In this document: piece after piece, positions 17,440 to 39,149 of the stretch | Layout of the letters: every line of letters begins with the position of its first letter | How positions within the stretch are numbered: position 1 is the first letter of the stretch | Origin: an uncultured Eubacteriales bacterium | GTDB taxonomy: Bacteria; Bacillota; Clostridia; Lachnospirales; CAG-274 | Assembly (NCBI GenBank): GCA_902469905.1 | Contig: CABREJ010000004.1 | Location: 108,554-172,553, forward strand | Length of the DNA stretch: 64,000 bases | Direction of reading: 5' to 3' | Position numbers and translations under genes: made by a program | Notes under the pieces: generated by a model | The model's database searches: none | The model's input: only the letters and a program-made list of their open reading frames with translations | Told to the model about the DNA's origin: nothing

Positions 17440-17457
17440 TTTCTCCCCCTAAAGCTA

Positions 17458-18788: not shown

Positions 18789-18802
18789 AGCTTAACCTGC
18801 CT

Positions 18803-19432
18803 TTAAACAATAATATCAACAACAAAATTAAGAATAGGTGTTATCCAGCCAAGCAAAATAAAGAATATAACTGCTATTTGCAATGGCTTTTCATACTGAC
18901 AATATTTAATGGCAGCATTAGGACTTAAAAAGCATCTCAATATCCAACTGCCACTCATTGGGTAAACTGGCAAAATATTAAATACAGCTATTGCAGCAAA
19001 ATTTCTGGCTAAATAATAAATGGCTGTGTATACATAAGATAAAGCTCCATTATCTGGCACTAAAGTATATACAAACTTAAAAACCAAAGCCAATACCACT
19101 GATATTACAATAGGTGCTGAATAAGTAACTACAGTGCCTATTTTTCTATCCTTATAATTTCTGCTTGATGTTTCTGTTGGATTTGCCCAGCCGTAACCAG
19201 TAAACAAAAATAGCAAAAAGCCAATAGGCTCAAAGGACTTAGCTGGGTTTAATGTCAACTTACCTTGATTTTTAGGCACAGTGTCACCTTGAATTGTAGA
19301 CACACTAGCCTTTATAAATTCAAACAGTGTTGTAACTATTATTATAGTAACTGCATTAATTAAGTAATAAATAATTATATCCATTAAATCTCCCCTAGTC
19401 TTGAATACGCTTGAACTTCTTTTCAAGCTCAT
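18803..19432 (-). CDS. Hypothetical membrane protein (start probably internal MDIIIYY)
   Basis: Multiple TM helices; ORF 5' end overlaps mutL 3' end. Confidence 0.4.
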   Translation of the reverse strand: MSLKRSSSVFKTRGDLMDIIIYYLINAVTIIIVTTLFEFIKASVSTIQGDTVPKNQGKLTLNPAKSFEPIGFLLFLFTGYGWANPTETSSRNYKDRKIGTVVTYSAPIVISVVLALVFKFVYTLVPDNGALSYVYTAIYYLARNFAAIAVFNILPVYPMSGSWILRCFLSPNAAIKYCQYEKPLQIAVIFFILLGWITPILNFVVDIIV

Positions 19433-21329: not shown

Positions 21330-21339
21330 TTATATACCT

Positions 21340-23937
21340 CTATTCATCTATACTATTTAATCCACTTAACTTTTCCTTAATATCATAAAGTTGCTTCATA
21401 GCCTCAAAAGGAGTAATGTTATTTAAGTCAATGCTACCTACACTGTCAGATATTTCTCTTAATACTTCAACCTTTCTAGCTATAGGTTCATCATCATAGC
21501 TAAAGTCATCAATATCAACATTGACAGTTTTATCCTCTGTGGCAAGAAGTTTTAATATAGTATTTGCTCTTTTAACAACACTTCTAGGCACACCAGCTAT
21601 TTTAGCTACGTGAACACCGTAACTTCTATCTGTGCCACCTTCAATAATCTTTCTTAAGAATATAATATCCTCGCCCTGCTCCTTAACACTGACACAATAG
21701 TTTTTGACGCCCTTTACCTTGCCTTCAAGCTCAGTAAGTTCGTGATAATGAGTGGCAAAGAGTGTTCTTGCTCCAATTTTATTGGCTATATATTCAAGTA
21801 CAGCCCAAGCAATACTTAAGCCGTCAAAAGTTGAAGTACCTCTACCTATTTCATCAAGTATGAGAAGACTATTTTTAGTAGCATTATTAAGAATGTTAGC
21901 AACCTCAACCATTTCCACCATAAATGTTGACTGACCTGTTGCAAGGTCGTCAGATGCACCAACTCTAGTAAATATTCTATCTGTTATGCCAATTTCAGCA
22001 CTTTCAGCCGGTACAAAGCTACCCATTTGAGCCATAAGCACAAGCAAAGCTGTTTGACGCATATATGTAGACTTACCAGCCATATTAGGACCAGTGATTA
22101 TTGCTAAAGACTCATTGTCATTAAGATAAGTGTCATTAGGAATAAAACTTTCTTTACTTACTTTTTCTACTACGGGGTGTCTGCCTGCCTTAATATCAAT
22201 AACACTAGTATTATTGACAACAGGCTTAACATAATTGTTTTTGTCTGCTACATCGCCTAAGGATTGAAGAACATCAATAACAGATAAATAATAAGCTGTA
22301 GACTGTATTCTCTCTACCTTTTGTGCTATTTGACTTCTTATATTACTAAATAGGTCATATTCAAGTGCCACAACCTTTTCATCAGCACCTAATATTGTAT
22401 CTTCTATTTCCTTTAACTCTGGTGTAATATATCTTTCAGCATTAGTCAATGTTTGCTTTCTTATATATCTATCTGGCACTTGGTCTTTATATGAATTAGT
22501 TACTTCAATATAATAGCCAAAAACCTTGTTATACTTTATTCTAAGTTTAGGTATATTAGTTGCCTCTTTTTCCTTTGCCTCAAGTTCAGTAAGCCAGCCT
22601 GCACCCTCTGTTTTTGCACTTCTTAATTTATCAACTTCCTCATTATAGCCTGCCTTAATTATGCCGCCCTCTCTTACACTAAAAGGAGCTTCGTCAGATA
22701 TACTTTCATTTATAAGATTATATATATCCTCAAGGCAATCAAAATTGTTATATATTTCTTTGACATAATTAGAATTGTAAGAAGAAATATTGTTTTTGAT
22801 TTGAGGAAGATAAGCAAATGAATTTTTAAGAGCTATTAAGTCCTTACCATTAGCTGTGGCATAAACAACCTTACCCATTAAACGCTCAATGTCATAAATT
22901 GTGTTAAGCATTTCCTTTAAATCCTCTCTTTCAAAAGGAGAATTTTTAAATGCCTCTACTGCATCAAGCCTTTTGTTTATTTCTTCACCGTCAATTAAAG
23001 GCTGTTCAAGCCATTTTCTCAAAAGTCTAGCACCCATTGCAGTTTTAGTATTATCTAATACCCACAAAAGTGAGCCTTTTTTCGACTTATCTCTTATAGT
23101 TTGAGTAAGCTCCAAATTTCGTCTTGAACTTATGTCAAGAACCATATATTTGTTTGAAGAATACTTTTTAATAGAAGAAATATGTGACAAATTATTCTTC
23201 TGTGTTTCAATAAGGTATTCAAGCAATGCACCAGCAGAAATTACACAAGGTCTATCATCTTCAAGTCCAAAACCTGCAAGATTAAGGGTCTTAAAGTGGT
23301 TACAAAGGCAAATATTAGCATTTTGATAGTCAAATGCCCAATTATTATATTGACTAACCTTAATATCAAAAATGTTGTTTATCTGTTCGCTTAATTCAAT
23401 TTCACCATTGCATATAATTTCTGACGGATTAAATCTAGCAATTTCATCAATTACCTTATTATCTAAATCACTTGGAACTGATGTTACTTGAAATTCACCA
23501 GTTGACACATCACAGCTTGCCACTCCATAGCCGTCAACATTTTTGTAGATACACATTATATAATTATTTTTGCTTTCATCAAGAACATTTGTGTCAAGTA
23601 CAGTACCAGGTGTTACAATTCTTATAACCTCTCTCTTTACAATACCTACAGCCTTTTTAGGGTCCTCTGTTTGCTCACATATTGCCACCTTGTAGCCTTT
23701 TTCAACAAGTTTTGCAATATATCCGTCAGCAGAGTGAAAAGGGACACCACACATAGGTGCCCTCTCCTCTTGACCACAATTTTTGCCTGTAAGTGTAAGC
23801 TCCAATTCCTTTGAAGCAATAATAGCATCATCATAAAAAAGCTCATAAAAATCCCCTAATCTATAAAATAAAAGGCAATATTTATATTCCTCTTTAATCT
23901 GCATATATTGCTCCATCATAGGTGTTAGCTTAGCCAT
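21340..23937 (-). CDS. mutS: DNA mismatch repair protein MutS
   Basis: 865 aa, Walker A GPNMAGKST and MutS domains. Confidence 0.9.
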   Translation of the reverse strand: MAKLTPMMEQYMQIKEEYKYCLLFYRLGDFYELFYDDAIIASKELELTLTGKNCGQEERAPMCGVPFHSADGYIAKLVEKGYKVAICEQTEDPKKAVGIVKREVIRIVTPGTVLDTNVLDESKNNYIMCIYKNVDGYGVASCDVSTGEFQVTSVPSDLDNKVIDEIARFNPSEIICNGEIELSEQINNIFDIKVSQYNNWAFDYQNANICLCNHFKTLNLAGFGLEDDRPCVISAGALLEYLIETQKNNLSHISSIKKYSSNKYMVLDISSRRNLELTQTIRDKSKKGSLLWVLDNTKTAMGARLLRKWLEQPLIDGEEINKRLDAVEAFKNSPFEREDLKEMLNTIYDIERLMGKVVYATANGKDLIALKNSFAYLPQIKNNISSYNSNYVKEIYNNFDCLEDIYNLINESISDEAPFSVREGGIIKAGYNEEVDKLRSAKTEGAGWLTELEAKEKEATNIPKLRIKYNKVFGYYIEVTNSYKDQVPDRYIRKQTLTNAERYITPELKEIEDTILGADEKVVALEYDLFSNIRSQIAQKVERIQSTAYYLSVIDVLQSLGDVADKNNYVKPVVNNTSVIDIKAGRHPVVEKVSKESFIPNDTYLNDNESLAIITGPNMAGKSTYMRQTALLVLMAQMGSFVPAESAEIGITDRIFTRVGASDDLATGQSTFMVEMVEVANILNNATKNSLLILDEIGRGTSTFDGLSIAWAVLEYIANKIGARTLFATHYHELTELEGKVKGVKNYCVSVKEQGEDIIFLRKIIEGGTDRSYGVHVAKIAGVPRSVVKRANTILKLLATEDKTVNVDIDDFSYDDEPIARKVEVLREISDSVGSIDLNNITPFEAMKQLYDIKEKLSGLNSIDE

Positions 23938-23952
23938 AAATAATCACCCTAA

Positions 23953-24354
23953 TTAGTGACAACCACTACAACTACTGCAACTACCTGTGCAGCCACCAGC
24001 CTCGTCTTCGCACTCACCAGTGATAGTAGCCTGAAAAATTGACATAACCTTGTTAATAACAGCGTTAAATTCGCTTTCAGCCTGTACCATATCATTAATA
24101 ATTTGATTTTTCTTTAAATCATTAATCATTTCTGTCAATTTAGAACCTTCAGCCTTTAAATCTTCCTGAGAAATACTGCCTTCCTGAACTCTCATATTAA
24201 CAGCCTCTCTGTAAGTGTTGTAGTTTAAAAGCTGTTGTCTAGCTTCTTCATTGTTATCAAACATATATCTTGTTTCAGCAACCTTCTTGCCCTCATCTGA
24301 TGCAAGTACAGCATAAGCAAGTTCTCTAGCCTGTTCAAAAATTGAATTTTCCAT
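23953..24354 (-). CDS. YlbF/YmcA-like regulator with C-terminal Cys-rich tail
   Basis: Helical ~115 aa body followed by CEDEAGGCTGSCSSCSGCH. Confidence 0.45.
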   Translation of the reverse strand: MENSIFEQARELAYAVLASDEGKKVAETRYMFDNNEEARQQLLNYNTYREAVNMRVQEGSISQEDLKAEGSKLTEMINDLKKNQIINDMVQAESEFNAVINKVMSIFQATITGECEDEAGGCTGSCSSCSGCH

Positions 24355-24845: not shown

Positions 24846-25583
24846 GTGACGGTGATGATTAAAATTGCAGTATGTGACGATGATATTCAAGAGCTTAAAA
24901 AGATTTTAAACATACTATCAGAATATCAAAGTATTAATAAAATATCATTTAAAATTGATTTTTATTCAAGTGGTGATGAGCTAATAAGTGCATTAGAATA
25001 TAATAATTATCAAATACTTATTTTAGATATACTTATGCCTGGAATAAATGGAATAGAAACAGCAAAGGAAATACGCAGTTTTGACTCGGAAGTTGACATT
25101 GTTTTTTTAACATCATCGCCAGAATTTGCAATAGACGGATATTCAGTAAAGGCATTTAATTATCTTATAAAACCAGCTTCATCTGAAACATTATTCCCTA
25201 TTATTAATGAACTAGTGCATAAAACTGCAAAAAGTGAAGATATGCTTATACTAAATTCGCCTTTAGAAACTGTTAAAATACCATTTTCTCACATAGAATT
25301 TTTGGAAATATTTAATAAAAAAATATCATTAAACTTAGATGACGGCAGTGTAAAGGGAATAAGTGGCACATTGTCTGATTTTGAAAAGAAACTTACAACC
25401 CGTAAAGAATTTATAAAAGTGCACCGTTCCTATATTGTAAATATGGATTGTATTCTTTCTCTTAAGAAAAGTGAAATAATAACATACAACAACAAAAAAG
25501 TTCCTGTATCAAGGCTGTTATATAACGATATAAAGCAAAAATATGTAGAATATCTCTTTGGTGATGGAGGCAAAAGTTTATGA
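24846..25583 (+). CDS. LytTR-family response regulator (receiver + LytTR DNA-binding domain)
   Basis: IAVCDDD receiver N-term; C-terminal LytTR (FIKVHRSYIVN). Confidence 0.8.
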   Translation: MTVMIKIAVCDDDIQELKKILNILSEYQSINKISFKIDFYSSGDELISALEYNNYQILILDILMPGINGIETAKEIRSFDSEVDIVFLTSSPEFAIDGYSVKAFNYLIKPASSETLFPIINELVHKTAKSEDMLILNSPLETVKIPFSHIEFLEIFNKKISLNLDDGSVKGISGTLSDFEKKLTTRKEFIKVHRSYIVNMDCILSLKKSEIITYNNKKVPVSRLLYNDIKQKYVEYLFGDGGKSL

Positions 25584-26863
25584 TAAATTTTTTAAAAATA
25601 CTTGAATTAATAAACTATGGACTTGTTACAACATACGGTTTTCTTCTTAGTATTGCTTTTTCTGGTGGGTACAAAAGCATAAAGCAAAAAAATTTGTCTA
25701 TTTACCTACTAGTTATTTTTATACTTATTCAAACACCTCTTAGGTTTATAATGGGTGTTGATTTTACTAAGCAAATATACCCTATTATAGTACATTTGCC
25801 TCTTGTTTTGGTTTTAGTGTTTGCTTTAAAAAAGCCTGTTGGTGTTTCAATTGTTAGTGTATTTACAGCTTATTCCTGCTGTCAATTACCTAGAATGGTA
25901 TCAATTATCGTTCTTTTTATTACTTCATCACCTCTTATTAGTGAAATACTATATACTCTTGCAATTGTGCCAATATTTATTTTGCTTTATAAATATTTTG
26001 CCAAATTTGCTTATACTGCTATGACTTACTCAAGGAATTCTTTGTTTTTGTTTGGCATTTTACCAACAGCCTATTACATATTTGACTTTGCAACTACAAT
26101 TTACACAAAGCTGTTATATTCAGGCATTTATGCTATAAACGAGGCTTTGCCTACAGTCTGCATAATATTTTACATTGGTTTTATAACTTTGTACCACGCA
26201 GATGTGCAAAAAATAAACAAGGCGGAATTTGAAAAATCTACCCTTTCATTAGAATTAAAGCAAGCTGAAACAGAAATAACTGCAATGAAAATAATGAGAG
26301 AACAAAATGCTGTATTTAGACACGATTTAAGACACCATATAAATCTGCTTTCAGCATATCTTGAAAATAACGATGTTAAATCTGCAACAGATTATATTAA
26401 ACAAATGAATACAGATATAGACAAAATTACACCAACTCTGTATTCTGAAAACAACATAGTAAACTTTACATTATCATATTTTAAGTTTAAAGCTAAAGAA
26501 AAAGGAGTTAAACTAAATTGTGAAGTAAATGTGCCACAAGAAATTAATATTCCTGAAACTGACTTAAGTGCTGTTTTGTCAAACACAATAGAAAATGCTA
26601 TTAATGCTGCTACTTGCTGTGATAACTCAATAGATAAAACTGTAAATGTTAATTTACAGGTTAAGAAAAACAAGCTATTAATATCTGTTAAAAATCCTTA
26701 CACTGGATTGATTGAGGTAAAAGATGAACTTCCAACAAATATAGCTGATGGTCACGGCTTTGGTATAAAGAGTATTAAAACAATAGTTGAACATCATAAT
26801 GGTATATACTCCTTTGACTGGGATAATAATATATTTAAAACCCGTATTGTTATGAATATTTAG
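25580..26863 (+). CDS. AgrC/ComD-like sensor histidine kinase (HPK10, GHKL)
   Basis: 6-7 TM N-terminus, RHDLRHHINLL H-box, C-terminal ATPase (DGHGFGIKSI). Confidence 0.75.
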   Translation: MINFLKILELINYGLVTTYGFLLSIAFSGGYKSIKQKNLSIYLLVIFILIQTPLRFIMGVDFTKQIYPIIVHLPLVLVLVFALKKPVGVSIVSVFTAYSCCQLPRMVSIIVLFITSSPLISEILYTLAIVPIFILLYKYFAKFAYTAMTYSRNSLFLFGILPTAYYIFDFATTIYTKLLYSGIYAINEALPTVCIIFYIGFITLYHADVQKINKAEFEKSTLSLELKQAETEITAMKIMREQNAVFRHDLRHHINLLSAYLENNDVKSATDYIKQMNTDIDKITPTLYSENNIVNFTLSYFKFKAKEKGVKLNCEVNVPQEINIPETDLSAVLSNTIENAINAATCCDNSIDKTVNVNLQVKKNKLLISVKNPYTGLIEVKDELPTNIADGHGFGIKSIKTIVEHHNGIYSFDWDNNIFKTRIVMNI

Positions 26864-26938
26864 TGTGATTGTGCTAATAAATTGCAATTTTTTATCAATT
26901 CATAGACCTTATATATAAAACTCACAACCCCTCCCAAA

Positions 26939-26985
26939 TTGATATGTACCCTCTTTACTGGACACCCAGTAAGGAGGGTACATAT
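26939..26985. other. Long near-perfect hairpin (21-bp stem, 5-nt loop) downstream of kinase gene, no U-tract
   Basis: gatatgtaccctctttactgg acacc cagtaaggagggtacatatc. Confidence 0.4.
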
Positions 26986-27337
26986 CACACTGTGTCGATG
27001 TTCAGCTTATAATACTCCAATAAATAATATATAACCTAATTTTTTTGAAAAGGACCAAAATAATTAAAATATGATAAGCGAATTATGAAGAATAGATAAG
27101 TAAAATAATTCCTTTGTCAACTGGTGTTATTTTATAGAAATCACACTACACAAGGTCAAAATTTCAATATTCTCACTGCCAACATATATTTTCTTGTATC
27201 CTTTTATATTTACAAAAAATTTCAATGTAACTCCTTATCATTAATCACCCTTATGCTATTATAACAAACAGCTTAGAACTAACAATTAACAAATAATTAT
27301 TAATCGTACAACTCACCCTTTGCATAATTTGTAAGGG

Positions 27338-28198
27338 GTGATTTTTTTGAGCAGAACAAAATTTGCGATTATAGGAGGAGATTACAGGTACAAACTACTT
27401 AAGGAGTTACTTGAAAAGGACGGCTACATTGTATCCATATATGGCAACATATATTGCGAAAGCACCAATGATATAGACAGCACCATTTCAAATTCAAAGG
27501 CAGTAATAGCACCAATACCAATAACAAAAGACGACAAAAAAGTATATATGAGCGAAAACTTTCAATTAACAGTTGACGACCTTTTAAACTCAATGTCAAG
27601 CAACAATGTTAAGGTATTAATAGGTGGGGTTATTTCAGAAAAGCTCAAAAACATAGCCAATATATACAACATAAAGGCTATTGACTTATTCTCATTAGAG
27701 GAAGTTGCTATAAACAACGCCATACCTACAGCAGAGGGTGCTATAATGACAGCCATACAAGAAAGCGACAAAGTCCTTTTTAAAAGCAAAAGTTTAGTTT
27801 TAGGCTTTGGCAGATGTGGCAAGGTATTAGCCAATATGTTAAAAGGCATAGGAGCAAATGTGTATGTAACATACAGAAAGAAAAGTGATGAAGCCTATAT
27901 AAATTCAATAAGCTGTACACCAATTAGCTTTAATGGATATGACAGAAATATATCAGACTATGACTTTATATTCAACACAATACCAGCACCTATACTCAAT
28001 CAAGAAATATTAAAAAGAATAAGAAAAGACACACCAATAATCGACATAGCACAAGCCCCAGGAGGCTTAGACTACAACTATGCTAGAAAATTAAATTTAA
28101 AAGCAATATATTGCCCAGGCTTGCCAGGCAGAGTTGCACCCTACTCTGCTGCACAAATACTAAAATCATCAATTATTGATATTGTTCTTGACAGCTAA
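27338..28198 (+). CDS. dpaA: Dipicolinate synthase subunit A (start may be TTG at 27347)
   Basis: Block-wise match to B. subtilis DpaA from memory: AIIGGDYR, NAIPTAEGAIMTAIQ, FNTIPAPILNQ, PGGLDY, CPGLPGRVAP. Confidence 0.8.
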   Translation: MIFLSRTKFAIIGGDYRYKLLKELLEKDGYIVSIYGNIYCESTNDIDSTISNSKAVIAPIPITKDDKKVYMSENFQLTVDDLLNSMSSNNVKVLIGGVISEKLKNIANIYNIKAIDLFSLEEVAINNAIPTAEGAIMTAIQESDKVLFKSKSLVLGFGRCGKVLANMLKGIGANVYVTYRKKSDEAYINSISCTPISFNGYDRNISDYDFIFNTIPAPILNQEILKRIRKDTPIIDIAQAPGGLDYNYARKLNLKAIYCPGLPGRVAPYSAAQILKSSIIDIVLDS

Positions 28199-28247
28199 CT
28201 CACCACAAGTCGCCATTAATCATACTATACAAAAGGAGGTGATACAA

Positions 28248-28826
28248 ATGGACCTACAGGGAATAAATCTGGGTTTATGTATGTGTGGCTCTTTTTGTAC
28301 TTTTAGTGAGGTGCTTAAGGAAGTAACAGCTCTAAGCAAAAGAAATATAAATATATACCCTATTTTAAGCTACAACGCTGACAGCATAAACACAAGGTTT
28401 GGAGCTGTAGAGGATTTTAGAGATAAGCTGTATGATATTAGTGGCAACAATATAATATCAACAATAAAGGACGCTGAACCCATAGGTCCTCAAAAGCTGT
28501 TAGATATAATGCTTGTAGCACCTTGCACAGGCAACACACTTGCAAAGCTAAACAACGGAATTACAGACACACCTGTTACAATGGCTTGCAAGGCTCACTT
28601 AAGAAATAATAAACCTCTTGTTATAGCTTTAGCCACAAATGACGCTTTAGGCATAAGCCTTAAGAATATAGGTGGCTTAATAACAAGAAAAAATATATAC
28701 TTTGTTCCATTTTCACAAGATAACCCTGAAAAAAAGCCATTATCAATGATAGCGGATTTTAGCAAAATATATGATACCTTAGCCCTTGCAATAGAGGGAA
28801 AACAAATACAACCAATTATTTTTTAG
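28248..28826 (+). CDS. dpaB: Dipicolinate synthase subunit B (ORF-track start 28176 is an over-extension; ATG at 28248 has AAAGGAGGTGA RBS)
   Basis: LGLCMCGSFCTF, NTRFG, AEPIGP, APCTGNTLAKL, ATNDALG blocks match DpaB. Confidence 0.8.
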   Translation: MDLQGINLGLCMCGSFCTFSEVLKEVTALSKRNINIYPILSYNADSINTRFGAVEDFRDKLYDISGNNIISTIKDAEPIGPQKLLDIMLVAPCTGNTLAKLNNGITDTPVTMACKAHLRNNKPLVIALATNDALGISLKNIGGLITRKNIYFVPFSQDNPEKKPLSMIADFSKIYDTLALAIEGKQIQPIIF

Positions 28827-28844
28827 TAAATATTACTAAATCAC

Positions 28845-28878
28845 AAGCACTTCAGCATAGTTCTGAGGTGCTTTTTGC
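28845..28878 (+). terminator. Terminator after dpaB
   Basis: gcacttcagcatagttctgaggtgc hairpin then TTTTT. Confidence 0.5.
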
Positions 28879-29017
28879 ATAATAAATAAAATATCAAATA
28901 CTAATAGTTTTGCTACATATTTATACTTTTTAGCAATAATATAGTTTTATTTGTCACAAAGTTGTTACGAAAATATTTCAAAAATCGCAAATAATTTTTA
29001 GTTTTTATGCAATTCAC

Positions 29018-29046
29018 TTGACAAATATTGGATATTATTATAGAAT
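29018..29046 (+). promoter_or_regulatory. Sigma-A-type promoter TTGACA-17-TAGAAT for NlpC/P60 gene, followed by tandem CGTAACA repeat (29052-29072)
   Basis: Exact TTGACA, 17-nt spacer, TAGAAT; ~70 nt upstream of ATG. Confidence 0.45.
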
Positions 29047-29117
29047 AGCACTCGTAACATTTGCGTAACATTTTTAATATTTATGATTAATTGTGAAACA
29101 AATTTAGGAGTGATATT

Positions 29118-29870
29118 ATGAAATTATTAAATAAGTTAAATTCAATTATTATTTTAAGCTGTTTCTTTACCATTGCTGGTGCTATGACAGCAAATGCTAG
29201 TGAAGGAGTTTTTTCTGACCTTGTAACTAGTAACAAAATTGTTGACGCTATGCCAACTAAAAATACTAATAACAATATTTATGTTACTTGCAAAACATCT
29301 ATTGATATGAAATCAAACTCATCAAACAATTCAAGACAAATAAGATTGTTGCCAGAGGGCTATAACTTAACTGTGTTAGGTGCTGAATACGGCTGGGTAA
29401 ATGTTAAAGATGATGATGGCAATATTGGTTATGTGTATAGTGGTAATGTTGATTTTAAAAATGGTACAATGCCAGCAAATGTTGACCCATTAGAAGAAAA
29501 AGGCAAAGATATAGTTGATTTTTCAAAGCAATATTTAGGCACACCTTATGTGTGGGGTGGCACAAGCCTTACTTCTGGCGTTGATTGCTCAGGCTTTGTT
29601 TATAGTGTTTATAAAAACTTTGGCATTACATTAAACCGTAGCTCAAAGGGTATGTATTCATCAAATGGCGTAGCTGTGGCTAAGTCAGACTTAATGCCTG
29701 GTGATTTGTTATTCTTTAATACTAGTGGTAGTGGTGTATCTCACGTTGGTATGTATATTGGTAATAATCAGTACATTCACGCCGCATCTACTGATGTTAA
29801 AATATCTAACTTAAATGATAGCTACTCTTTAAGAACATATATTGGGGCTAAAAGAGTGTTGGCGTGTTAA
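29118..29870 (+). CDS. Secreted NlpC/P60 family peptidoglycan hydrolase with SH3-like N-domain
   Basis: Signal peptide; GTPYVWGGTSLTSGVDCSGFV catalytic Cys block; HVGMYIG His. Confidence 0.85.
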   Translation: MKLLNKLNSIIILSCFFTIAGAMTANASEGVFSDLVTSNKIVDAMPTKNTNNNIYVTCKTSIDMKSNSSNNSRQIRLLPEGYNLTVLGAEYGWVNVKDDDGNIGYVYSGNVDFKNGTMPANVDPLEEKGKDIVDFSKQYLGTPYVWGGTSLTSGVDCSGFVYSVYKNFGITLNRSSKGMYSSNGVAVAKSDLMPGDLLFFNTSGSGVSHVGMYIGNNQYIHAASTDVKISNLNDSYSLRTYIGAKRVLAC

Positions 29871-29875
29871 GAGAA

Positions 29876-30480
29876 CCTCCTCATCAGTTACTGCGTGACA
29901 GTTCTCCTCGGAGTGGAGTTAGGTGGCTAATAATTACTTTTATTTATAGTGAACAGGTATATTGTAGGGGCGATTACTAATCGCCCGTTGATTAATTATT
30001 GGTAATAGTTACATCGGGCGAACATTGTTCGCCCCTACAGAAAATCCGTTAATTTTACTTATTACTCAATACTTAATTTATAATATTATTAAATATAACA
30101 TTACATATAATAAACAGTTTATTTGTAGGGGCGACCAGTGGTCGTCCTTTTGTGTTTTTTGAGAACAGGTATACTGTAGATATACACCCTTAAATATTAA
30201 ATATACAGCATACATATAGTGAACAGGTATATTGTAGGGGCGATTACTAATCGCCCGTTGATTAATTATTGGTAATAGTTACATCGGGCGAACATTGTTC
30301 GCCCCTACAAGCAAACAGTAACTATTACATATAACCTATTAACTATTATTTATTACTTATTACCTAAAAATAAAAACCCCTCAGTCACTTCGTGACAGCT
30401 CCCCTACAAGTGGAGCTAAATTATTACCATTACTTATATAATAAAATAAGGACGAGCAATGCTCGCCCCTACAAATGATA
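29876..30480. repeat. Cluster of mosaic intergenic repeats: ~95-bp exact direct repeat (29946-30040 / 30216-30310) each holding a composite palindrome TGTAGGGGCGATTACTAATCGCCC...GGGCGAACATTGTTCGCCCCTACA, plus single hairpin units (30124-30147, 30450-30474) and two minus-orientation copies of the 45-nt element (29885-29926, 30373-30418)
   Basis: Read directly; arms GGGCGATT/AATCGCCC, GGGCGAAC/GTTCGCCC, outer TGTAGGGG/CCCCTACA are reverse complements. Confidence 0.7.
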
Positions 30481-30602
30481 TAACTTTGTCTAATATCTAT
30501 CACACGCATTTTGCTACGCAAAACAAATCTTTCGGTGCAATATGTTCTCTCCTACAAGTAACAATAACTATTATCTATTAATTATTATTTCTTACCTACT
30601 AT

Positions 30603-31634
30603 TTATCTACTCATTTCTTCCTGAGGACCAGATGACATATGTGACTTAATTACGCTCTGAATTTCCTCCAAAGATGCAGCTGGCATATCACCATTAGTTG
30701 TACATTTAACAGCTGACATTGCATTACCATATCTTACAGCCTGCATAGGGTCATCAGTTGTTAAAAGAGCATATAAAGCACCAGCAACATAAGCATCACC
30801 AGAACCAATTCTATCAATAACCTCAATATTTTCATAAGCAGGTTCTTCATAGAAGCAACCGTTGTAATAAAGTTTTGAGCTAAAGTTATGCTTAGTTGGG
30901 CTAACAACTTCTCTCTTAGTAGTAGCAACTACCTTACAGCCATATTCATCACAATAGCTCTTCATAATTTCCTCAAGAGTACCAGTTTTCTGCATCATCT
31001 TTCTTGAAGTTTCCTCTGATACAAAGAGAATATCTATGTAAGGGAGGATTGAAGTAATAGCCTCTCTAGCTTCTTCTTCTGACCAAAGTTTAGCTCTATA
31101 GTTACAGTCAAAGCTAATAGATGCACCAGCCTCTTTAAACTTCTTAACAATCTCAATAGTAGTTTCCTTTAAGTTAGAGTTAAGGGCCATAGTAATACCA
31201 CTAACGTGGAATAATCTAGTGTTAGTATAAACAGAAGGGTCAATTTCCTCCTTCTTTAAATAACACATTGAAGAATGAGCTCTATCATAAACTACAGATG
31301 ACTTTCTTGGATAAGCACCTGCCTCATAATAATAAATACCAAGTCTTGCATTTTTAGAATCATCATAAATAAGATAATCATCAGATACATTACCGTATCT
31401 AATCTTGTACTTAGCAAATCTACCAACCTTGTTATCAGGGAGTCTAGTGATAATGGCTGAACGAACGCCTAAGAAAGCAGCACCAGAGGCAACATTTAAT
31501 TCAGAACCACCAGCCTGTTTTTCAAAACTTTCACTTCTGGAAATCTTTTCCTTATTATGTGGTGAAAGTCTTAACATAACTTCGCCAAAGCCAACCATAT
31601 CAAACTTTTTGTCTTTCATTGGTATAATACTCAT
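30603..31634 (-). CDS. PfkB-family sugar kinase (KdgK-like)
   Basis: 343 aa; C-terminal GSGDAYVAGALYALL / DTTGAGD-like anion hole region. Confidence 0.7.
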   Translation of the reverse strand: MSIIPMKDKKFDMVGFGEVMLRLSPHNKEKISRSESFEKQAGGSELNVASGAAFLGVRSAIITRLPDNKVGRFAKYKIRYGNVSDDYLIYDDSKNARLGIYYYEAGAYPRKSSVVYDRAHSSMCYLKKEEIDPSVYTNTRLFHVSGITMALNSNLKETTIEIVKKFKEAGASISFDCNYRAKLWSEEEAREAITSILPYIDILFVSEETSRKMMQKTGTLEEIMKSYCDEYGCKVVATTKREVVSPTKHNFSSKLYYNGCFYEEPAYENIEVIDRIGSGDAYVAGALYALLTTDDPMQAVRYGNAMSAVKCTTNGDMPAASLEEIQSVIKSHMSSGPQEEMSR

Positions 31635-31676
31635 AATAATTCTCCTTTTTTATTTCTTTTGTTCTTTTTTCTTTTT

Positions 31677-32684
31677 TTATTTGTAAATAGGATAGCCGAC
31701 TTTCTTCTTAACCTTTGTTAAAGTCTTGTTAGCAATATAAGAAGCCTTGTCTGCACCGTCCTTCATTACCTTTTCCAAATAAGCCTTGTCAGATGAATAT
31801 TCCTTAAACTTCTTCTGAATAGGCTCAAGCTCTGCAACGACAGCCTCTCCCACTGCTGCCTTAAAGTCGCCATAACCAACACCCTTAAACTCATTTACAG
31901 CCTCATCAATAGTCTTGCCTGTAACAGATGAGTAAATATTAAGAAGGTTGCTTACGCCTGGCTTATCTTCGCCATATCTTACCTCTGTATCAGAGTCAGT
32001 TACAGCTCTTTTAATCTTGTTTCTAATTACATTAGGCTCATCTAAAATGTAGATAACATTGTTCATATTGTCACTTTCAGACTTGCTCATTTTCTTTTCT
32101 GGGTTTTGAAGTCCCATTATTCTAGCTCCCACCTTTGGAATATAAGGGTCAGGAATTTTGAATACATCACCATAAATGCTGTTAAATCTGCCAGCAATAT
32201 CTCTACAAATTTCAAGATGCTGTTTCTGGTCAGCACCAACTGGCACTAAGTCACTCTGATAAAGAAGAATATCACCAGCCATTAACACTGGATAAGTGAA
32301 AAGACCAGCATTAATATTGTCAGCGTGTTTAGCAGACTTATCCTTAAACTGTGTCATTCTGCTAAGCTCACCCATATATGTGTAACAATTTAAAATCCAA
32401 GCAAGCTCTGCGTGAGCCTTAACATCAGACTGAACATAGATAATATGCTCCTCTGGATTAAGACCAATTGATAAGAATAATGCAACTAAATCTTTAGTTC
32501 TTTTTCTCAATTCAGTTGGGTCCTGTCTAACAGTAATAGCGTGCATATTTGCAACACCAAATATACAGTTATATTCATCTTGAAGATTTTTCCAATTCTT
32601 TAAAGCACCAATGTAGTTGCCAAGAGATGGTATACCTGATGGTTGCATTGCACTATATATAACTTTTTTCTTTTCTTCTGCCAT
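31677..32684 (-). CDS. trpS: Tryptophan--tRNA ligase
   Basis: 335 aa class I; GIPSLGNYIGAL (HIGH-like) and KMSKS (KMSKSESDNMN). Confidence 0.9.
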   Translation of the reverse strand: MAEEKKKVIYSAMQPSGIPSLGNYIGALKNWKNLQDEYNCIFGVANMHAITVRQDPTELRKRTKDLVALFLSIGLNPEEHIIYVQSDVKAHAELAWILNCYTYMGELSRMTQFKDKSAKHADNINAGLFTYPVLMAGDILLYQSDLVPVGADQKQHLEICRDIAGRFNSIYGDVFKIPDPYIPKVGARIMGLQNPEKKMSKSESDNMNNVIYILDEPNVIRNKIKRAVTDSDTEVRYGEDKPGVSNLLNIYSSVTGKTIDEAVNEFKGVGYGDFKAAVGEAVVAELEPIQKKFKEYSSDKAYLEKVMKDGADKASYIANKTLTKVKKKVGYPIYK

Positions 32685-32706
32685 TTTAATTCACTCCAGT
32701 TTCTAA

Positions 32707-33696
32707 TTATAATGTAGCATACATAACAGCCTTGATTGTATGCATTCTGTTTTCAGCCTCATCAAAGACAACAGACTGAGAAGACTCAAATACTTCGTCA
32801 GTAACTTCCATTTCGCTTATGCCAAATTTGTTGTTAATTTCCTTGCCAATCTTAGTGTTAAGGTCGTGGAAAGCTGGTAAACAGTGCATAAATATAGCCT
32901 TTTCACCTGCATTATCCATAACAGCCTTATTTACCTGATATGGTGAAAGCTCCTTAATTCTCTCTGTCCAAACCTCGTCTGGCTCACCCATAGATACCCA
33001 AACATCTGTGTAAATAACATCAGCATTCTTAGTACCCTCTGTTACATCTTCTGTCAATGTAATTGTTGAACCATTAGCTTCAGCAATCTTTTTGCACTCC
33101 TCCACAAGTTTAGCATCTGGGAAATACTTTTTAGGAGCACAAGCAGTAAAGTTCATACCCATTTTAGCACAGCCAGCCATAAGAGAATTACCCATATTGT
33201 AACGAGCATCGCCCATATAAACAAAGTTGACACCCTTAAGTTTGCCTAAATGCTCTCTAATAGTTAAAAAGTCAGCTAAAATCTGAGTTGGGTGAGATTC
33301 ATTAGTAAGACCATTCCAAACAGGAACTCCAGCATACTTAGCAAGCTCCTCAACAATTTCCTGACCAAAGCCTCTATATTCAATACCGTCAAACATTCTG
33401 CCTAATACTCTTGCAGTATCAGCAATGCTTTCTTTCTTGCCAATCTGTGAACCAGTTGGGTCAAGATATGTAGAACCCATACCTAAATCAGATGCAGCCA
33501 CCTCAAAGGCACATCTTGTTCTTGTACTTGTTTTTTCAAATATAAGAGCAACATTTTTTCCTCTATAAATATCAACAGGTGTACCTGCCTTTTTCTTAGC
33601 CTTTAAATCAGCAGCTAAGTCTAAAAAATATTCAAGTTCTTCTGTTGTAAAATCTAAAATTTTAAGAAAATTTCTTCCTTTTAAATTAACACTCAT
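32707..33696 (-). CDS. argF: Ornithine carbamoyltransferase
   Basis: STRTR carbamoyl-phosphate motif, HCLP motif (FMHCLPAFH). Confidence 0.85.
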
Positions 33697-33836
33697 ACTT
33701 AATCCTCCTAAAAACCATTTAATCTAATTATACAACAAAATTTTTTAATTGTATACAATAAATATTTAATTTACATAAATTTTATTTTAACAATGTATAA
33801 ACATTACATTTAAGGACAATAATAGGATTAGGAGGT

Positions 33837-34568
33837 GTGAGAATGGATAAAAATGAAAATTACAACAAAAAAGGCTTTTATACTGTACTTTACACATTGG
33901 CAGCTGTATTTATTATAATCGCCTTTGGCATTTCTATTCTTAATAGTGGCAACAAACCTAACAACAACGAGGCAAATTTAGAGGAAAACATATCCCCTGT
34001 TGACAAATCTAATGTTAAGCCACTTGCAACAACAGAAGCTACAACAGAAATAAAGGCTGAAGCCCCAACTGAGGCTGTGACTACGGCTGAAAAACCACAG
34101 TCAGCAAATAACGAAACTATTGACAACGGCGAACTAAGCCTATTTGATGATAGTCAGGAAATGTCTTGGCCTGTTTCTGGTCAAATTGTAATGGACTATA
34201 GTGCTGATACTGGCATTTACGACAGAACTCTTGAACAGTACAGAACAAATAATTCTGTATGTATATCTGCTGATGTTGGTACTAATGTGTGTGCGTCTGC
34301 TGACGGCATAATTACTTCAATAACTAATGATAAGGTTTCTGGTGTAACAGTCAAGGTAGACCACGGCAATGGCTGGTGCTCTACATACAGTCAGTTAGAT
34401 GAAAACTTGGCTGTATCTGAAGGTGAAGCTGTTCACAAAGGTGATAAAATAGGCACAGTTGCTAACCCTACTAACTATAGCACAGCTTTAGGTCCTCACT
34501 TGGAATTTTCTGTGTTAAATGATGATACCCCAACTGACCCAAAACTTGTTCTTGCACAAGCTGAATAA
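33837..34568 (+). CDS. M23 family metallopeptidase with N-terminal TM anchor
   Basis: C-terminal GVTVKVDHGNGWCSTYSQL ... GPHLEFSV LytM-type motifs. Confidence 0.8.
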   Translation: MRMDKNENYNKKGFYTVLYTLAAVFIIIAFGISILNSGNKPNNNEANLEENISPVDKSNVKPLATTEATTEIKAEAPTEAVTTAEKPQSANNETIDNGELSLFDDSQEMSWPVSGQIVMDYSADTGIYDRTLEQYRTNNSVCISADVGTNVCASADGIITSITNDKVSGVTVKVDHGNGWCSTYSQLDENLAVSEGEAVHKGDKIGTVANPTNYSTALGPHLEFSVLNDDTPTDPKLVLAQAE

Positions 34569-34577
34569 TTTGATATG

Positions 34578-34612
34578 ACTATTGCGTGGCATAATAACAC
34601 GCAATAGTTGTT
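34578..34612 (+). terminator. Perfect hairpin after M23 gene (weak U-tract)
   Basis: ctattgcgtggcataataacacgcaatag. Confidence 0.4.
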
Positions 34613-34664
34613 GTACATATATTATAATGCATTAAATGCTCTAGTATCAAACATTTAAACAGCA

Positions 34665-35510
34665 GGTGTAATTAAGGTGTTGTTTAGGTGTTGTTTTTTT
34701 ATAAATTTGTCACCCTATTTTTTGGCTTAAATACTAGAGTTTCAATATATAGGGTGTCAAAAGTGCAAATATTTTTCACTTCTTGAAATGTTATAATATT
34801 TTATATTTTTCAATTATTTTTACCAACCAAAAAAATCGACACTTTTAACACCCTGTTATTTTTTATGTTTATTATATATTTTTCTTTATTATTATAAAAG
34901 TAAGTAAATAAGCCATTAATTGAACATTGTTAAGCAATAAATAATACTAAAAATTAATTATAAATATTAATGTTAATGTACTAATTTTAACACCCAAATC
35001 GACACCCAAACAACACCCTAGCAATATATCTAATTAAAGTAATACTAATATACAGTAAATTAATTATAAAAATAAAATCCATAAGTGTAAAAAGCTCTAA
35101 TATTAAGATTTAACTTAGGGTGCAATTTATGGTGCAGTTTGGGTGCAAGTTTATTGCATATTTTGCACCCCATTTTTTGGCTTAAATACTAGGGTTTCGG
35201 AGTGTATGGTGCAGAATGGTGCATATTTTTTGCACTTACTAAAATGTTTAATAATATTTTTGATTTTCAACTTTTTTGCCAACTAAAAAAACCTGCACCA
35301 TTTTGCACCCCGTTAAAATTTTTATTTAATACTTTATGTATTTTAGTGTAAAAAACATAGTAAATAAGCCATTAATTGAACATTATCAAGCAACAAATAA
35401 TACTAAAAATCAATTATAATGTTAATATTAATGTATTTATTTCTGCACCATATTTTGCACCATAACTTGCACCCTAATTTAAACTATATAAATATAATTG
35501 ATTAAAGTAT
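34665..35510. repeat. Two tandem ~450-bp noncoding modules (unit1 ~34665-35120, unit2 ~35121-35510) with conserved AT-rich backbone but systematically swapped word arrays (GGTGTT/AACACCC in unit1 vs GGTGCA/TGCACCC in unit2)
   Basis: Aligned by eye: caccctattttttggcttaaatactag (34711) vs caccccattttttggcttaaatactag (35167); taagccattaattgaacatt... block conserved; no ORF >60 aa. Confidence 0.65.
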
Positions 35511-35544
35511 AGAAAAAATTAATAGGTAATGTTGGAAAATATTC

Positions 35545-36320
35545 TGTCAACCTACTCTGTGAGGGACGGTAAATGGCATTCCCCACCATACATAAAAATT
35601 AAAAGTAATAGTTATAAAGTACAGCTTGCTTGTAGGGGCGAGCATTGCTCGTCCATAGTAAAACGCGGATATTCGCCCTTAGTTATTCACAAATAGTTAC
35701 ATCGGGCGATTAATAATCGCCCCTACAAATAAACTGTTCTTTATATTTAAAAACACAACTAAAGAATAACAATATAGCTCCACTCTTAGGGACGGTAATG
35801 TGGTGTATCTCTATAGTAGCCTGTTTTAAAAAATGAAAAAGGACGACCACTGGTCGCCCCTACAAATAACCCGTTCATTATATTTAAAAGCACAACAGAG
35901 GAATAACCCTTTAGCTCCACTCTTAGGGGAGCTGGCACGAAGTGACTGAGGGGTTTTATTTAGGTAATAAGTAATAAGTAATAAATAATAGTTAATAGGC
36001 TATATGTAATAGTTACTGTTTGCTTGTAGGGGCGAGCATTGCTCGTCCTTAGTTATAGATAATATCAGAAACCCTTCCGTCAACCTACGGTTGCCACCTT
36101 CCCTATAAGGGACGGTAATGGGTATGTACCCACATATAATTATTAAACAAAAGTACAACTTAATTGTAGGGGCGAACAGTGTTCGCCCGCAGGTATTTAC
36201 AAATAGTTACATTAGGCAAACATCAGCATTTTTGCTACGCAAAACAAATCTTTTAATAAATCTAATTTTCATACAATCTAATTGATATTAAACATTAAAA
36301 AGGTCGACCACTGGTCACGC
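35545..36320. repeat. Second cluster of the same mosaic repeat families: hairpin units at 35631-35654, 35700-35727, 35841-35864, 36025-36048, 36165-36190, degenerate 36302-36320; 45-nt element 35912-35957; GGGACGGTAATGG-type units 35545-35584, 35775-35810, 36076-36132
   Basis: Direct reading; units share GTAGGGGCGA / TCGCCCCTAC arms with variable 4-10 nt cores. Confidence 0.7.
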
Positions 36321-36321
36321 G

Positions 36322-37886: not shown

Positions 37887-39149
37887 CTACATAAAAAATC
37901 TAAAATCATATGGTCTATCATATATAGCAATCTCCTGTTTTGCCATCTTAGATAGTTTTTTTGAGAAATCTAACGTAACCGGCAACACTTTATAAAAGCT
38001 ATCTCCGCTATTCCAATTCATTTTTGTTAACATCATTATTTCATCAACTAATGTTTTACCATCCGCATTTCCTAAAAAACGTTTTATATATAATGGTACA
38101 GGTATTTCCCTGCCATTTTTATAGTAATTCCTATTCTTTCCAGCTAATTCATCATGTTGAACTGCTCCATGTGTCCACAACAAGAAACTATTATCATCTA
38201 TAGGTATCACTGTTCCTCTAGATATAGGAAATGCTGAGGCCTTTGATTTAAAATCATTACTATCAAATCTAATTGCCCTCCATTGATTAAATTCTTGAAT
38301 TTGAATCAACTCAATGTCTTCAACTCCAACTAATCCGGCCTGTATTCCTTCTATTTCCTCTTTGGTAAAGAATGTAGTCTTATGAATTACTATTCTTTTT
38401 AAACTGTATGTGGGAACAGAATTATCATATAAATCTTTCAGTTTGCTCATTAATAATCTTGCATCATCTTTTCTCATAAATGGATTTTTATTAATAAATT
38501 GTGGATTTTTTATAGGACGAAGAAATAATCTCATTCCATTACCTTGTGCATCAAACAATTGGCTGCATCCGATCAGAATTTCTTTCTTACCTGCCATAGC
38601 TTGTACATAACTTAACCCAACATATGCTGTATCAATCCTATAATTTTCAGGAGTCCATAATTTACCTATTGCTTTTGTATAAATTGCCGTAGATAAACCC
38701 CACATAATTTTAGCCAAATCATTATATCTGTTTTGCACAACAGAACGTGCTTCTATAAACTGAGTTTTAATTTCCTTTTGTGCACAGTATAACTTTATGG
38801 AATCATGCAAGTCAAAATATTCTTTATCATTTTTTAACTCCCTATATTTTTTAAACTCAAACGGAATATAAATTACAAGCATATCAAATTCTGATACATT
38901 CTCATATAAACTATCAATATACTTAAGCAATCCCCTAAAAAATTGTTTGATATTACAGTTAAGTGCCTTACTCATAGAATAACCTTTATATCTCATACTG
39001 TCATTTTTATAAGGAATATCTATAGCACATCTAAAAATAATATTAAACCCATCATATTCCGGCAAAAAACATTTTTCATTACTATAGTTGGAAACCGCTC
39101 TATTATTTAATTTATGTGTCAAGACAGACCTCCGTCCCCTGTCTTGCAT
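37887..39149 (-). CDS. Short prokaryotic Argonaute (MID-PIWI), catalytically inactive; annotated ATG lies inside an IS inverted repeat so true start is probably a downstream Met (e.g. MRYKGYSM)
   Basis: PIWI landmarks in order: KAIGKLW (pAgo KxGGxPW-like), TAYVGLSYV (GxDVxH position, D->S), RIVIHKTT (RDG position -> KTT), QIQEFNQWRAIRF (~VVQKRHHTRLF), IPVPLYIKRFLG (~IPAPAYYAHLVA); MID-like DMLVIYIP...YRELK...EIKTQFIE. Confidence 0.6.
   Translation of the reverse strand: MQDRGRRSVLTHKLNNRAVSNYSNEKCFLPEYDGFNIIFRCAIDIPYKNDSMRYKGYSMSKALNCNIKQFFRGLLKYIDSLYENVSEFDMLVIYIPFEFKKYRELKNDKEYFDLHDSIKLYCAQKEIKTQFIEARSVVQNRYNDLAKIMWGLSTAIYTKAIGKLWTPENYRIDTAYVGLSYVQAMAGKKEILIGCSQLFDAQGNGMRLFLRPIKNPQFINKNPFMRKDDARLLMSKLKDLYDNSVPTYSLKRIVIHKTTFFTKEEIEGIQAGLVGVEDIELIQIQEFNQWRAIRFDSNDFKSKASAFPISRGTVIPIDDNSFLLWTHGAVQHDELAGKNRNYYKNGREIPVPLYIKRFLGNADGKTLVDEIMMLTKMNWNSGDSFYKVLPVTLDFSKKLSKMAKQEIAIYDRPYDFRFFM

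Follow-up and report, generated by a model that had tools for sequence, protein, structure and literature searches.

A pair of probable orphan phage-type replication origins with two iteron specificities at the edge of a defence island in a gut Clostridia genome

What kind of element is built as two adjacent noncoding modules that share a backbone and differ in the short words repeated along it? The question is raised by a stretch of 64,000 nucleotides from the genome of an uncultured Eubacteriales bacterium (GenBank assembly GCA_902469905.1, contig CABREJ010000004.1, positions 108,554 to 172,553), referred to here as the window. Two such modules, unit 1 and unit 2, are located at positions 34665-35017 and 35119-35473 of the window. 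An original prediction, made from the DNA letters, had interpreted them as a pair of protein-binding-site arrays between which the specificity is switched, and had offered origin iterons, a parS-like centromere or a phase-variable regulatory region as possible identities. We conclude with high confidence that the units are orphan replication origins of the Rep-iteron type known from Staphylococcus aureus pathogenicity islands (SaPIs) and the satellite phage P4, and that they represent two specificities. This level of confidence refers to what the units are and not to a function in their present place.

One backbone with two sets of words

The two units are homologous noncoding modules with a start-to-start spacing of 455-456 bp, in agreement with the original description, and their backbones are 73% identical outside the words (209/285 positions, ungapped). 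Hexamers occupy eleven corresponding positions in the two units; at the two outermost ones the alignment is shifted by one base. The words are of the type GGTGT[T/C/A]/[G/A]ACACC in unit 1 and GGTGCA/TGCACC in unit 2. Using the rest of the window as background, we observed 11 words in unit 2 where 0.15 were expected (P 2e-17) and 7 strict matches in unit 1 where 0.30 were expected (P 3e-8). The earlier statement that every GC-containing word of unit 1 is replaced in unit 2 is too broad, since the GC-containing blocks TTGGCTTAAATAC, AAGCCATTAATTG and CCAAC are common to both units. One site in unit 1 reads AGTGCA. The words in unit 2 number 11-12 rather than about 13. The features of the units are listed below, with the start of each individual word in brackets.

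34665-35017, minus strand: putative orphan origin unit 1, with GGTGTY/RACACC iterons, oriented such that the cognate rep gene would lie on the right side on the minus strand
34665-34692, plus strand: unit 1 outer array of three direct iterons, GGTGTA (34665), GGTGTT (34676) and GGTGTT (34687), with an 11-bp period
34709-34714, plus strand: unit 1 lone inverted iteron GTCACC (34709), which is GACACC in strains L003 and L007
34718-34745, plus strand: unit 1 conserved backbone block TTTTTTGGCTTAAATACTAGAGTTTCAA, present as GTATTTAAGCCAAAAA in unit 2, L054, L092, L057, L090 and L093
34753-34767, plus strand: unit 1 inner direct iteron pair, GGTGTC (34753) and AGTGCA (34762)
34768-34837, strand not applicable: unit 1 AT-rich centre, 70 bp, 84% AT
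34838-34852, plus strand: unit 1 inner inverted iteron pair, GACACT (34838) and AACACC (34847)
34903-34975, plus strand: unit 1 conserved block AGTAAATAAGCCATTAATTGAAC...AAATAATACTAAAAAT, the core of which, GTAAATAAGCC, is an inverted copy of GGCTTAAATAC
34989-35017, plus strand: unit 1 outer inverted array, AACACC (34989), GACACC (35001) and AACACC (35012), with a period of 11-12 bp; in phages, the end nearest to rep
35119-35473, minus strand: putative orphan origin unit 2, with GGTGCA/TGCACC iterons
35119-35147, plus strand: unit 2 outer array of three direct GGTGCA iterons (35119, 35131, 35142)
35164-35169, plus strand: unit 2 lone inverted iteron TGCACC (35164)
35173-35200, plus strand: unit 2 copy of the conserved block, TTTTTTGGCTTAAATACTAGGGTTTCGG
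35208-35223, plus strand: unit 2 inner direct GGTGCA pair (35208, 35218)
35224-35293, strand not applicable: unit 2 AT-rich centre, 70 bp, 80% AT, with an extra TGCAC half-site at 35231
35294-35309, plus strand: unit 2 inner inverted TGCACC pair (35294, 35304)
35359-35431, plus strand: unit 2 copy of the conserved block AGTAAATAAGCCATTAATTGAAC...
35444-35473, plus strand: unit 2 outer inverted array of three TGCACC iterons (35444, 35456, 35468)

Each unit is dyad-symmetric and contains, in order, three direct iterons, one inverted iteron, the block GGCTTAAATAC, two direct iterons, the AT-rich 70 bp, two inverted iterons, the block with GTAAATAAGCC and three inverted iterons. The period of the iterons in the outer arrays is 11-12 bp. 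Both centres are flanked by two direct and two inverted sites and exceed the AT content of the window, which is 66.6%. The centre of unit 1 is presumed to be a DNA-unwinding element, by analogy with the SaPI origins (PMC9371898).

Strain variants differ from the window at 22-24 sites inside the units, and none of these differences disrupts a word. One of them perfects a word, in that T>A at 34710, seen in strains L003 and L007, gives the consensus GACACC in place of GTCACC. Random divergence among strains had been named as an outcome that would speak against paired binding-site arrays, whereas the strain variants keep every word.

Homologous origins beside primase-helicase genes

The lead was found by a two-anchor backbone pattern search of metagenome contigs, which identified a locus (L054) with a single GGTGCA-word unit directly 3' of a 725-aa open reading frame (ORF). 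The L054 unit is 85% identical to unit 2 over 381 bp. The 725-aa protein contains the Pfam domains Toprim_2, D5_N and DUF5906, and its homologues carry the database name 'phage/plasmid primase, P4 family'. Relative to the orientation of the L054 replicase gene, the window units are located on the opposite strand.

The same layout, with homologous backbone blocks, is present directly 3' of P4-family primase-helicase genes both in prophages and in chromosomal loci with a lone rep gene, all from the same gut Anaerotignaceae lineage (L054, L057, L060, L061, L090-L093 and L100). Of the identities originally offered, these sequence comparisons favour origin iterons, as the neighbouring genes resemble both the P4 family and the SaPI primase-helicase PriRep. 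The prophage modules encode, in order, a serine recombinase, CI/Cro-like HTH proteins, Gam, AAA_24 and the primase-helicase, followed by a gap of 200-400 bp, further early genes (including a helicase) and the terminase. The gap has the window-like layout and starts at the stop codon of the primase-helicase gene. The related prophage and viral loci are listed below with the identity of the encoded protein to the L054 protein and the words of the origin.

L057 (protein P0002): 73% identity; GGTGCA/TGCACC; backbone blocks ATGGCTTATTTAC and GTATTTAAGCCAAAAAATGGGGTGC
L060 and L090 (P0005 and P0004): 71-72% identity; GGTGTT/GGTGTC/CGACACC, which are exactly the unit 1 words
L061 (P0006): 70% identity; AGTGAT/AACACT
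L063-68 (viral contigs): 50% identity; AAGGGCA
L084 (viral contig): 43% identity; TTACGGA
L067 (viral contig): 28% identity; AGGGAGA

In the three groups of viral contigs, too, an outer array and an inner pair precede the AT-rich centre, and an inner inverted pair and an outer inverted array follow it. Both words and layout are shared between unit 1 and the complete phage origin at L090 4100-4470, and between unit 2 and the prophage origin at L057 10157-10535. The closest relatives are found at the lone-rep loci: the origin that follows the lone rep gene of L092 matches unit 1 with 86.6% identity across 358 bp. Overall, the units are 85-87% identical to the chromosomal lone-rep origins and 66-68% identical to the known prophage origins. 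A lone rep gene with its origin occurs in the same species in a core context, between tRNA-Val/Met plus REP (repetitive extragenic palindromic)-like arrays and DUF454 (the locus of L054, L092 and L100-104).

The sequence of the words covaries with that of the replicase. In a protein alignment, the replicases are well conserved save for the last approximately 35 residues, and a motif ahead of a conserved YY tracks the origin word. The motif KGVRYY/KGIRYY is associated with GGTGCA (L054, P0002 of L057 and P0003 of L091), xGxKYY, in the form of RGTKYY or NGIKYY, with GGTGTY (P0004 and P0005 of L090 and L060, and P0001 of L092), and DGYSYY with AGTGAT (P0006, from L061, and P0007), while the more distant relatives have AAGGGCA, TTACGGA or AGGGAGA words. 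For P0003, the GGTGCA word was predicted from the motif before the DNA was inspected, and the 54 available bases 3' of the gene read GGGGTGCAATTTGGGGTGCAAAAGGGTGCA. In all, seven word types correspond to seven protein variants, a relationship that is a correlation only.

The L092 locus is a natural chimera (L092 2423-2800 compared with L054 7242-7620). Its chromosomal position is that of L054, the right flanks of the two are identical, and the two replicases are 96% identical, with 18 of their 31 differences falling within residues 691-725. The first approximately 330 bp of the L092 origin, about three quarters of it, contain GGTGTY words and provide the 86.6% identity to unit 1, whereas the last approximately 80 bp, with the distal four sites, still have the GGTGCA words of L054. 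The result is an origin of mixed specificity, with the crossover inside the conserved block GTATTTAAGCC.

We also examined the structure of the initiator. The best match of the replicase in the PDB was the SaPI5 primase-helicase PriRep (7OLA), both by sequence (phmmer E 3.8e-16) and by fold (Foldseek E 5e-25, template modelling (TM) score of 0.76-0.79 on the target). An AlphaFold2 model of P0001, based on 40 homologues and with a predicted local distance difference test (pLDDT) score of 87.8, places a helix at residues 679-688 followed by a beta-hairpin at 693-707. Residues 679-707 are thus modelled as a winged helix, the wing of which bears the variable residues. Taken with Pfam, phmmer and Foldseek, the model identifies the initiators beside the homologous origins as superfamily 3 (SF3) primase-helicases with a C-terminal winged helix. 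The words change together with the predicted wing, and the notion of paired binding-site arrays with switched specificity gains support from this.

In the mechanism that we propose, the winged helix of a self-loading replicase (Toprim, D5_N, SF3 helicase, C-terminal winged helix) would read the hexamer iterons, which in the outer arrays follow each other at intervals of one helical turn and which face opposite ways around the AT-rich 70 bp. Rep hexamers on the two inner pairs would then melt the AT-rich centre and load themselves. For the window units, we infer Rep binding and origin melting by homology; unit 1 would be the cognate site of replicases that read GGTGT[T/C] and unit 2 that of replicases that read GGTGCA. 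The word switch would have arisen through coevolution of Rep and iterons in phage and lone-rep lineages, and the two types would have come to lie side by side when family members exchanged sequence, by recombination or gene conversion, via the conserved backbone blocks. The switch was probably brought in from the phage and Rep lineages by recombination and did not arise by drift in place. The approximately 20 bp outside the outermost sites are alike in units 1 and 2 but unlike the corresponding segments of L054 or the phage origins, which suggests that an already orphan origin was duplicated in tandem and that one copy was then converted by a relative with the other specificity. The hybrid origin of L092 indicates that conversions of this sort do occur. 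A possible alternative history is that the two origins were captured independently.

Several observations were made on the lone-rep loci. Single genes for P4-family primase-helicases, fixed in core-genome settings and accompanied by an iteron origin of their own but by no other phage genes nearby, are located at L093-L096 6001-8841, L054 5065-7620 and L100 12449-14990. In the first of these, the rny locus of a congener, the lone rep gene comes after rny and is followed by a phage-derived 98-aa ORF; the 710-aa protein encoded there is identical in 109 index blocks, including long-read contigs of 1.8-2.3 Mb. The rny-locus origin (L093 8150-8530) mixes GGTGCA with GGTGTA/AGTGTA and TACACC words and may be degenerating or broadened in specificity. 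A direct repeat, AAATGTCACTAAATGTCACT, in the promoter region of this lone rep gene (L093 5937-5956) may be a repressor operator. The segment from SIR2 to DUF454 is a second variable hotspot (L101 11844-17264; L100 16193-16669), where L101 has several small DUF7336 proteins and other short ORFs in place of the lone rep gene.

Genomic setting and competing explanations

The units are located in an ORF-free stretch of 1753 bp (34569-36321, longest ORF 55 aa) between core genes and a defence island, which agrees with the original description of a 1.75-kb ORF-free stretch at an island boundary. The flanking genes for an M23 peptidase and a NUDIX hydrolase converge on this region. The left flank contains core genes for DpaAB, NlpC/P60, PfkB, TrpRS, ornithine carbamoyltransferase (OTC) and the M23 peptidase (ATG start at 33843), with MutSL, ScpAB and serine hydroxymethyltransferase (SHMT) farther left. 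On the right, about 800 bp of REP-like repeats are followed by a defence island of at least 28 kb, which encodes the NUDIX protein, an SRA/McrA-like protein, contact-dependent inhibition (CDI)/RHS toxins, a helicase-HNH protein, a GIY-YIG protein, RhuM, a Schlafen-type helicase, a C5 methylase, AIPR, DUF4420, Z1 and HATPase_c_3 proteins. The repeat array is an additional feature of the ORF-free stretch.

35530-36320, strand not applicable: REP-like interspersed repeat array, outside the origins, inserted along with the units in comparison with the empty site and also flanking lone-rep loci

The site downstream of the M23 gene, whose exact protein product is present in at least 58 blocks, was found in three states across lineages: empty, with the units but no island, and with both. 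The window and two independent metagenome contigs (L004 and L005, 100% identical over the 1753 bp) have the M23 gene, both units, the REP-like repeats and the defence island, whereas L003-type strains have the M23 gene, both units and the repeats followed by LrgB, with the island not adjacent. At the empty site of L097, a sequence that might have been the remains of a unit (TTTTTAACTTAAATACTGGTGTTT) was rejected, its local alignment score being 30 against a shuffle mean of 29.5, which is not significant.

A tblastn search with the replicase yielded no match in the window. The homologous loci do have a rep gene, and the window copies are therefore orphan members of the family by homology and not complete replicons. 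This status, origins with no rep nearby, goes beyond the original prediction, which had recommended a search for Rep/ParB-like genes with differing recognition helices; the window has no replicase, but Rep genes that differ in the wing are present beside the homologous origins elsewhere. The recommended inspection of GC skew gave no sustained sign change at 34-36 kb. Over the window as a whole the cumulative skew decreases almost without interruption, apart from slight local rises at 25-26, 29-30 and 34-35 kb. No DnaA box was found in either unit at up to one mismatch, and the sole match in 34569-36321 is located near 35683, inside the REP-like array. Since there is neither a sustained skew change nor a DnaA box in the units, the region is not oriC or the terminus. 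A classical plasmid iteron origin (RepA/pi/TrfA type, with direct iterons of 17-22 bp and DnaA boxes) was also rejected, as the words are hexamers in both orientations and the units lack DnaA boxes.

Database searches with the region itself gave no further relatives. By blastn, there was no match in 50,697 phage or 72,556 plasmid records. An exact 25-mer from the backbone was absent from 185,579 species genomes, with strain L003 differing within that 25-mer, while an exact 19-mer gave 26 chance matches in the same genomes, for which blastn found nothing past the seed. A backbone 17-mer and 18-mer gave only chance matches in viral contigs.

A number of observations weigh against our identification of the units as origins, or limit its reach. 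Three sites in unit 1 are imperfect (GGTGTA, GTCACC and GACACT), and the AGTGCA site is not of the unit 1 type. The conservation of words among strains is modest, with about 4 word changes expected and none of a disruptive kind observed (P ~0.01-0.05), and could reflect recent common origin instead of selection. A location directly 3' of rep, a defining trait of the family, is lacking in the window. In the sister lineage (L097-99), the flanks of which are about 87% identical at the DNA level, the site is empty and LrgB starts 268 bp after the M23 gene; the units are hence dispensable. Finally, the metagenome-assembled genome closest to the window strain (GCA_037066465.1, L101) has no lone rep gene at the SIR2 locus, so that a cognate resident Rep may be absent from the window genome.

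The units might have been kept for a function in trans, as decoys that titrate or handcuff phage initiators, or as Rep-triggered origins that amplify the defence island or wreck the chromosome in abortive infection, with two units for two phage specificities. The units are situated exactly on the boundary between core genes and defence island, both specificities of the related prophages are represented (GGTGCA in L057, GGTGTY in L060 and L090), and 11/11 sites are retained in each unit with no disruptive substitution in strains. There are also precedents: when present in many copies, cloned origins stop the phages they belong to, both in Streptococcus (Foley et al. 1998, cited in PMC6356513) and, as ectopic ori decoys, in the case of lambda (PMC4488673, PMC3349717), and escape replication in situ from unexcised prophage origins is documented (PMC2147009, PMC8008629). 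Nevertheless we consider such a function unlikely. Interference of the phage-encoded resistance (Per) type depends on copy number, and each unit type is single-copy here; the site is empty in the sister lineage; the L003-type strains, with units but no adjacent island, indicate that the two are not an obligate pair; and the units are far nearer to the chromosomal lone-rep origins than to the prophage origins. A more specific version, in which the host has retained a two-channel sensor or decoy and an initiator from a phage or a resident lone Rep is either titrated or fires the orphan origin, leading to over-replication of the island or abortive damage to the chromosome, has in our estimate a somewhat smaller chance still. 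If true, it would be a natural chromosomal counterpart of engineered Per resistance.

Other kinds of element fit the data far less well. A partition site (parC/parS/tubC-like centromere) bound by an adaptor of the ParR/ParB/TubR type, as in the second of the options originally offered, could explain short repeats at 11-12 bp in two clusters about a central region, which recall R1 parC and TubZRC tubC. We found it very improbable, given that no ParA/ParM/TubZ or adaptor gene is present beside the window units or any homologous origin with examined flanks (L054, L093 and the prophage origins L057, L061 and L090), that the array abuts the primase-helicase stop codon in every homologous locus and that the words covary with the C terminus of this protein. 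The same covariation accounts directly for the word switch, which leaves little room for the idea that each unit is a large structured noncoding RNA, or a long hairpin of single-stranded DNA, with the switch as compensatory covariation of its arms. Both units do fold better than shuffled sequences as single strands, with -106 kcal/mol for unit 2 (z -6.4) and -68.8 kcal/mol for unit 1 (z -3.3), and their outer arrays pair mutually, but this stability is a trivial outcome of the dyad symmetry of the sites and hence no independent evidence for RNA. Pairing does not require one word throughout a unit, and direct and inverted sites do not balance (5 and 6 per window unit, 8 and 7 in L057). An annotated structured RNA, which had been named as a finding that would contradict the binding-site arrays, was not detected: Rfam 15 gave no match at E <= 1 in 34569-35530 and only weak matches below the gathering threshold in the REP-like array or the M23 gene, promoter-like sites were not enriched and no terminator was found. 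We therefore strongly doubt the RNA reading. Imperfect terminal inverted repeats of 28-36 bp with sub-terminal repeated sites are also reminiscent of non-autonomous elements resembling miniature inverted-repeat transposable elements (MITEs), with transposase sites arranged as at the ends of Tn7 or Mu; however, there are no further copies in the window, the only copies found elsewhere adjoin rep genes and no transposase is associated with any of them, making this explanation extremely unlikely. The last of the original options, a phase-variable or otherwise regulated promoter with the words as operators, has in its favour an extended -10-like motif, TGTTATAAT, in the middle of unit 1 (about 34789-34797). 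It is hardly credible in view of the convergent flanking genes, which place the region upstream of neither, the number of promoter-like matches (12 compared with 9.1 +/- 3.0 in shuffles), the lack of conservation of the motif in unit 2 or L003, and the absence of an invertase or a simple-sequence tract.

Having weighed these explanations, we return to orphan Rep-iteron origins and lean towards regarding the units as relics or recombination products in a variable hotspot that may still be able to bind Rep. They would then belong to a previously unannotated origin family that serves the P4-family/PriRep-like primase-helicases of temperate phages infecting human-gut Clostridia. For this family we offer a candidate specificity code that pairs the motif in the C-terminal winged-helix wing with the iteron hexamer, the chimera mapping the putative determinant to about 30 residues. 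Such origins would persist in chromosomes without a replicase, here with two specificities adjacent at the edge of a defence island, which raises the question of whether phage origins left without a replicase serve as decoys or set off local amplification. For annotation, arrays of this kind should be labelled as origins and not as regulatory or centromere-like repeats.

Further observations concern the surroundings of the units. The REP-like family is species-specific and consists of GTAGGGGCGA...TCGCCC hairpins and a GGGGAGCTGGCACGAAGTGACTGAGGGG block in arrays, which are located at 35530-36320, 29870-30600 and 12789-12887 in the window, at 3100-4800 and 7700-8400 in L054 and at 15100-16150 in L100. 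These arrays flank the orphan origins and the lone-rep loci. Short-read contigs end at them, and look-ups of the NUDIX protein matched only contigs that end inside the REP-like array. The weak sub-threshold Rfam matches (DapZ, MicX and FourU) fall inside such arrays. In the sister lineage and L003-type strains, the gene order is DpaAB-OTC-M23 followed by LrgB-LrgA-SHMT-ScpBA (L003 8285-8512; L097 5727-5993), whereas in the window the block from LrgB to YlbF (12971-24354) lies upstream of the block from LytTR to M23 (24846-34568) and the defence island comes after M23. The presence of REP-like repeats at both junctions suggests REP-mediated rearrangement at a hotspot.

Within the island, the cluster of genes for a C5 DNA methylase, AIPR, DUF4420 (PD-(D/E)XK), Z1 and HATPase_c_3 at 52791-61655 adjoins those for the Schlafen-type helicase, an HNH protein and RhuM, and resembles a methylase-associated restriction or abortive-infection cassette. 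A 420-aa protein encoded on the minus strand at 37887-39149, between the SRA/McrA-like and CDI-toxin-like genes, has a weak sub-threshold match to Piwi_N (E 5e-4). On the other side of the units, a LytTR response regulator and a GHKL histidine kinase (agr/fsr-like) are encoded at 24846-26863, just upstream of the dipicolinate synthase genes and 8 kb upstream of the units. They have no connection to the origins, and both were rejected as candidates for the word-binding protein in view of the association with Rep; a reading of TCGACA in unit 1 as Spo0A boxes was rejected for the same reason.

Comparison with known systems

SaPI origins that function with Rep/PriRep initiators are said to have been described by Ubeda and colleagues in 2007 and 2012. 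They have 6-12 penta- or hexanucleotide iterons directly downstream of rep with an AT-rich centre and at least two iterons in opposite directions on each side, and the iterons are read by a C-terminal winged helix (PMC9371898). The window units appear, at the level of sequence, to have every one of these properties except adjacency to rep. Each has 11 hexanucleotide iterons, which is within the SaPI range, and an AT-rich centre with at least two oppositely pointing iterons on each side, while the start of the origin at the rep stop codon is seen in the homologous loci and not in the window. The initiator is likewise an SF3 primase-helicase with a predicted C-terminal winged helix and with 7OLA as its top match by sequence and fold, and the iteron sequence varies between elements to match the initiator variant. 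The differences are that the host is a gut member of the Anaerotignaceae (Clostridia) and not Staphylococcus, and that the carriers are full-size temperate prophages and lone rep-origin remnants instead of phage-inducible chromosomal islands (PICIs) of 15 kb. In addition, the layout is extended by outer arrays of 3-5 iterons and by two conserved blocks that are not iterons (GGCTTAAATAC and GTAAATAAGCC), and the window copies lack rep and combine two different specificities in tandem.

Satellite phage P4, with its origin, the crr site and the alpha protein, provides a second comparison, as the initiators belong to the same primase family according to the names of their homologues. The P4 alpha primase-helicase binds short repeated words in both orientations, as we propose for initiators of the window type, and crr is a second gene-free cis site with two tandem repeats that bear the iterons of ori. 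In P4 the iterons are eight bases long, and its ori and crr have one specificity and are located 4.5 kb apart on one replicon, unlike the tandem units of the window, which differ in their words and have no surrounding replicon.

The exchange of an initiator DNA-binding domain together with its iterons, as in the L054/L092 chimera, has a parallel in the PLE satellites of Vibrio cholerae, although the PLE initiator is of the unrelated RepA_N family with an N-terminal DNA-binding domain and the iterons are about 30 bp long; module swapping in PLE is driven by an origin-targeting phage nuclease (PMC8263062). Like the Per and lambda decoys, the window units would be noncoding phage origins that lie apart from their replicase genes in a host open to cognate phages, but the decoys are laboratory constructs on multicopy plasmids whereas the units are natural, chromosomal and single-copy. 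As SaPI/P4-style iteron origins they are of a known kind, and what is unusual is their status as an orphan, dual-specificity tandem pair at the boundary of a defence island.

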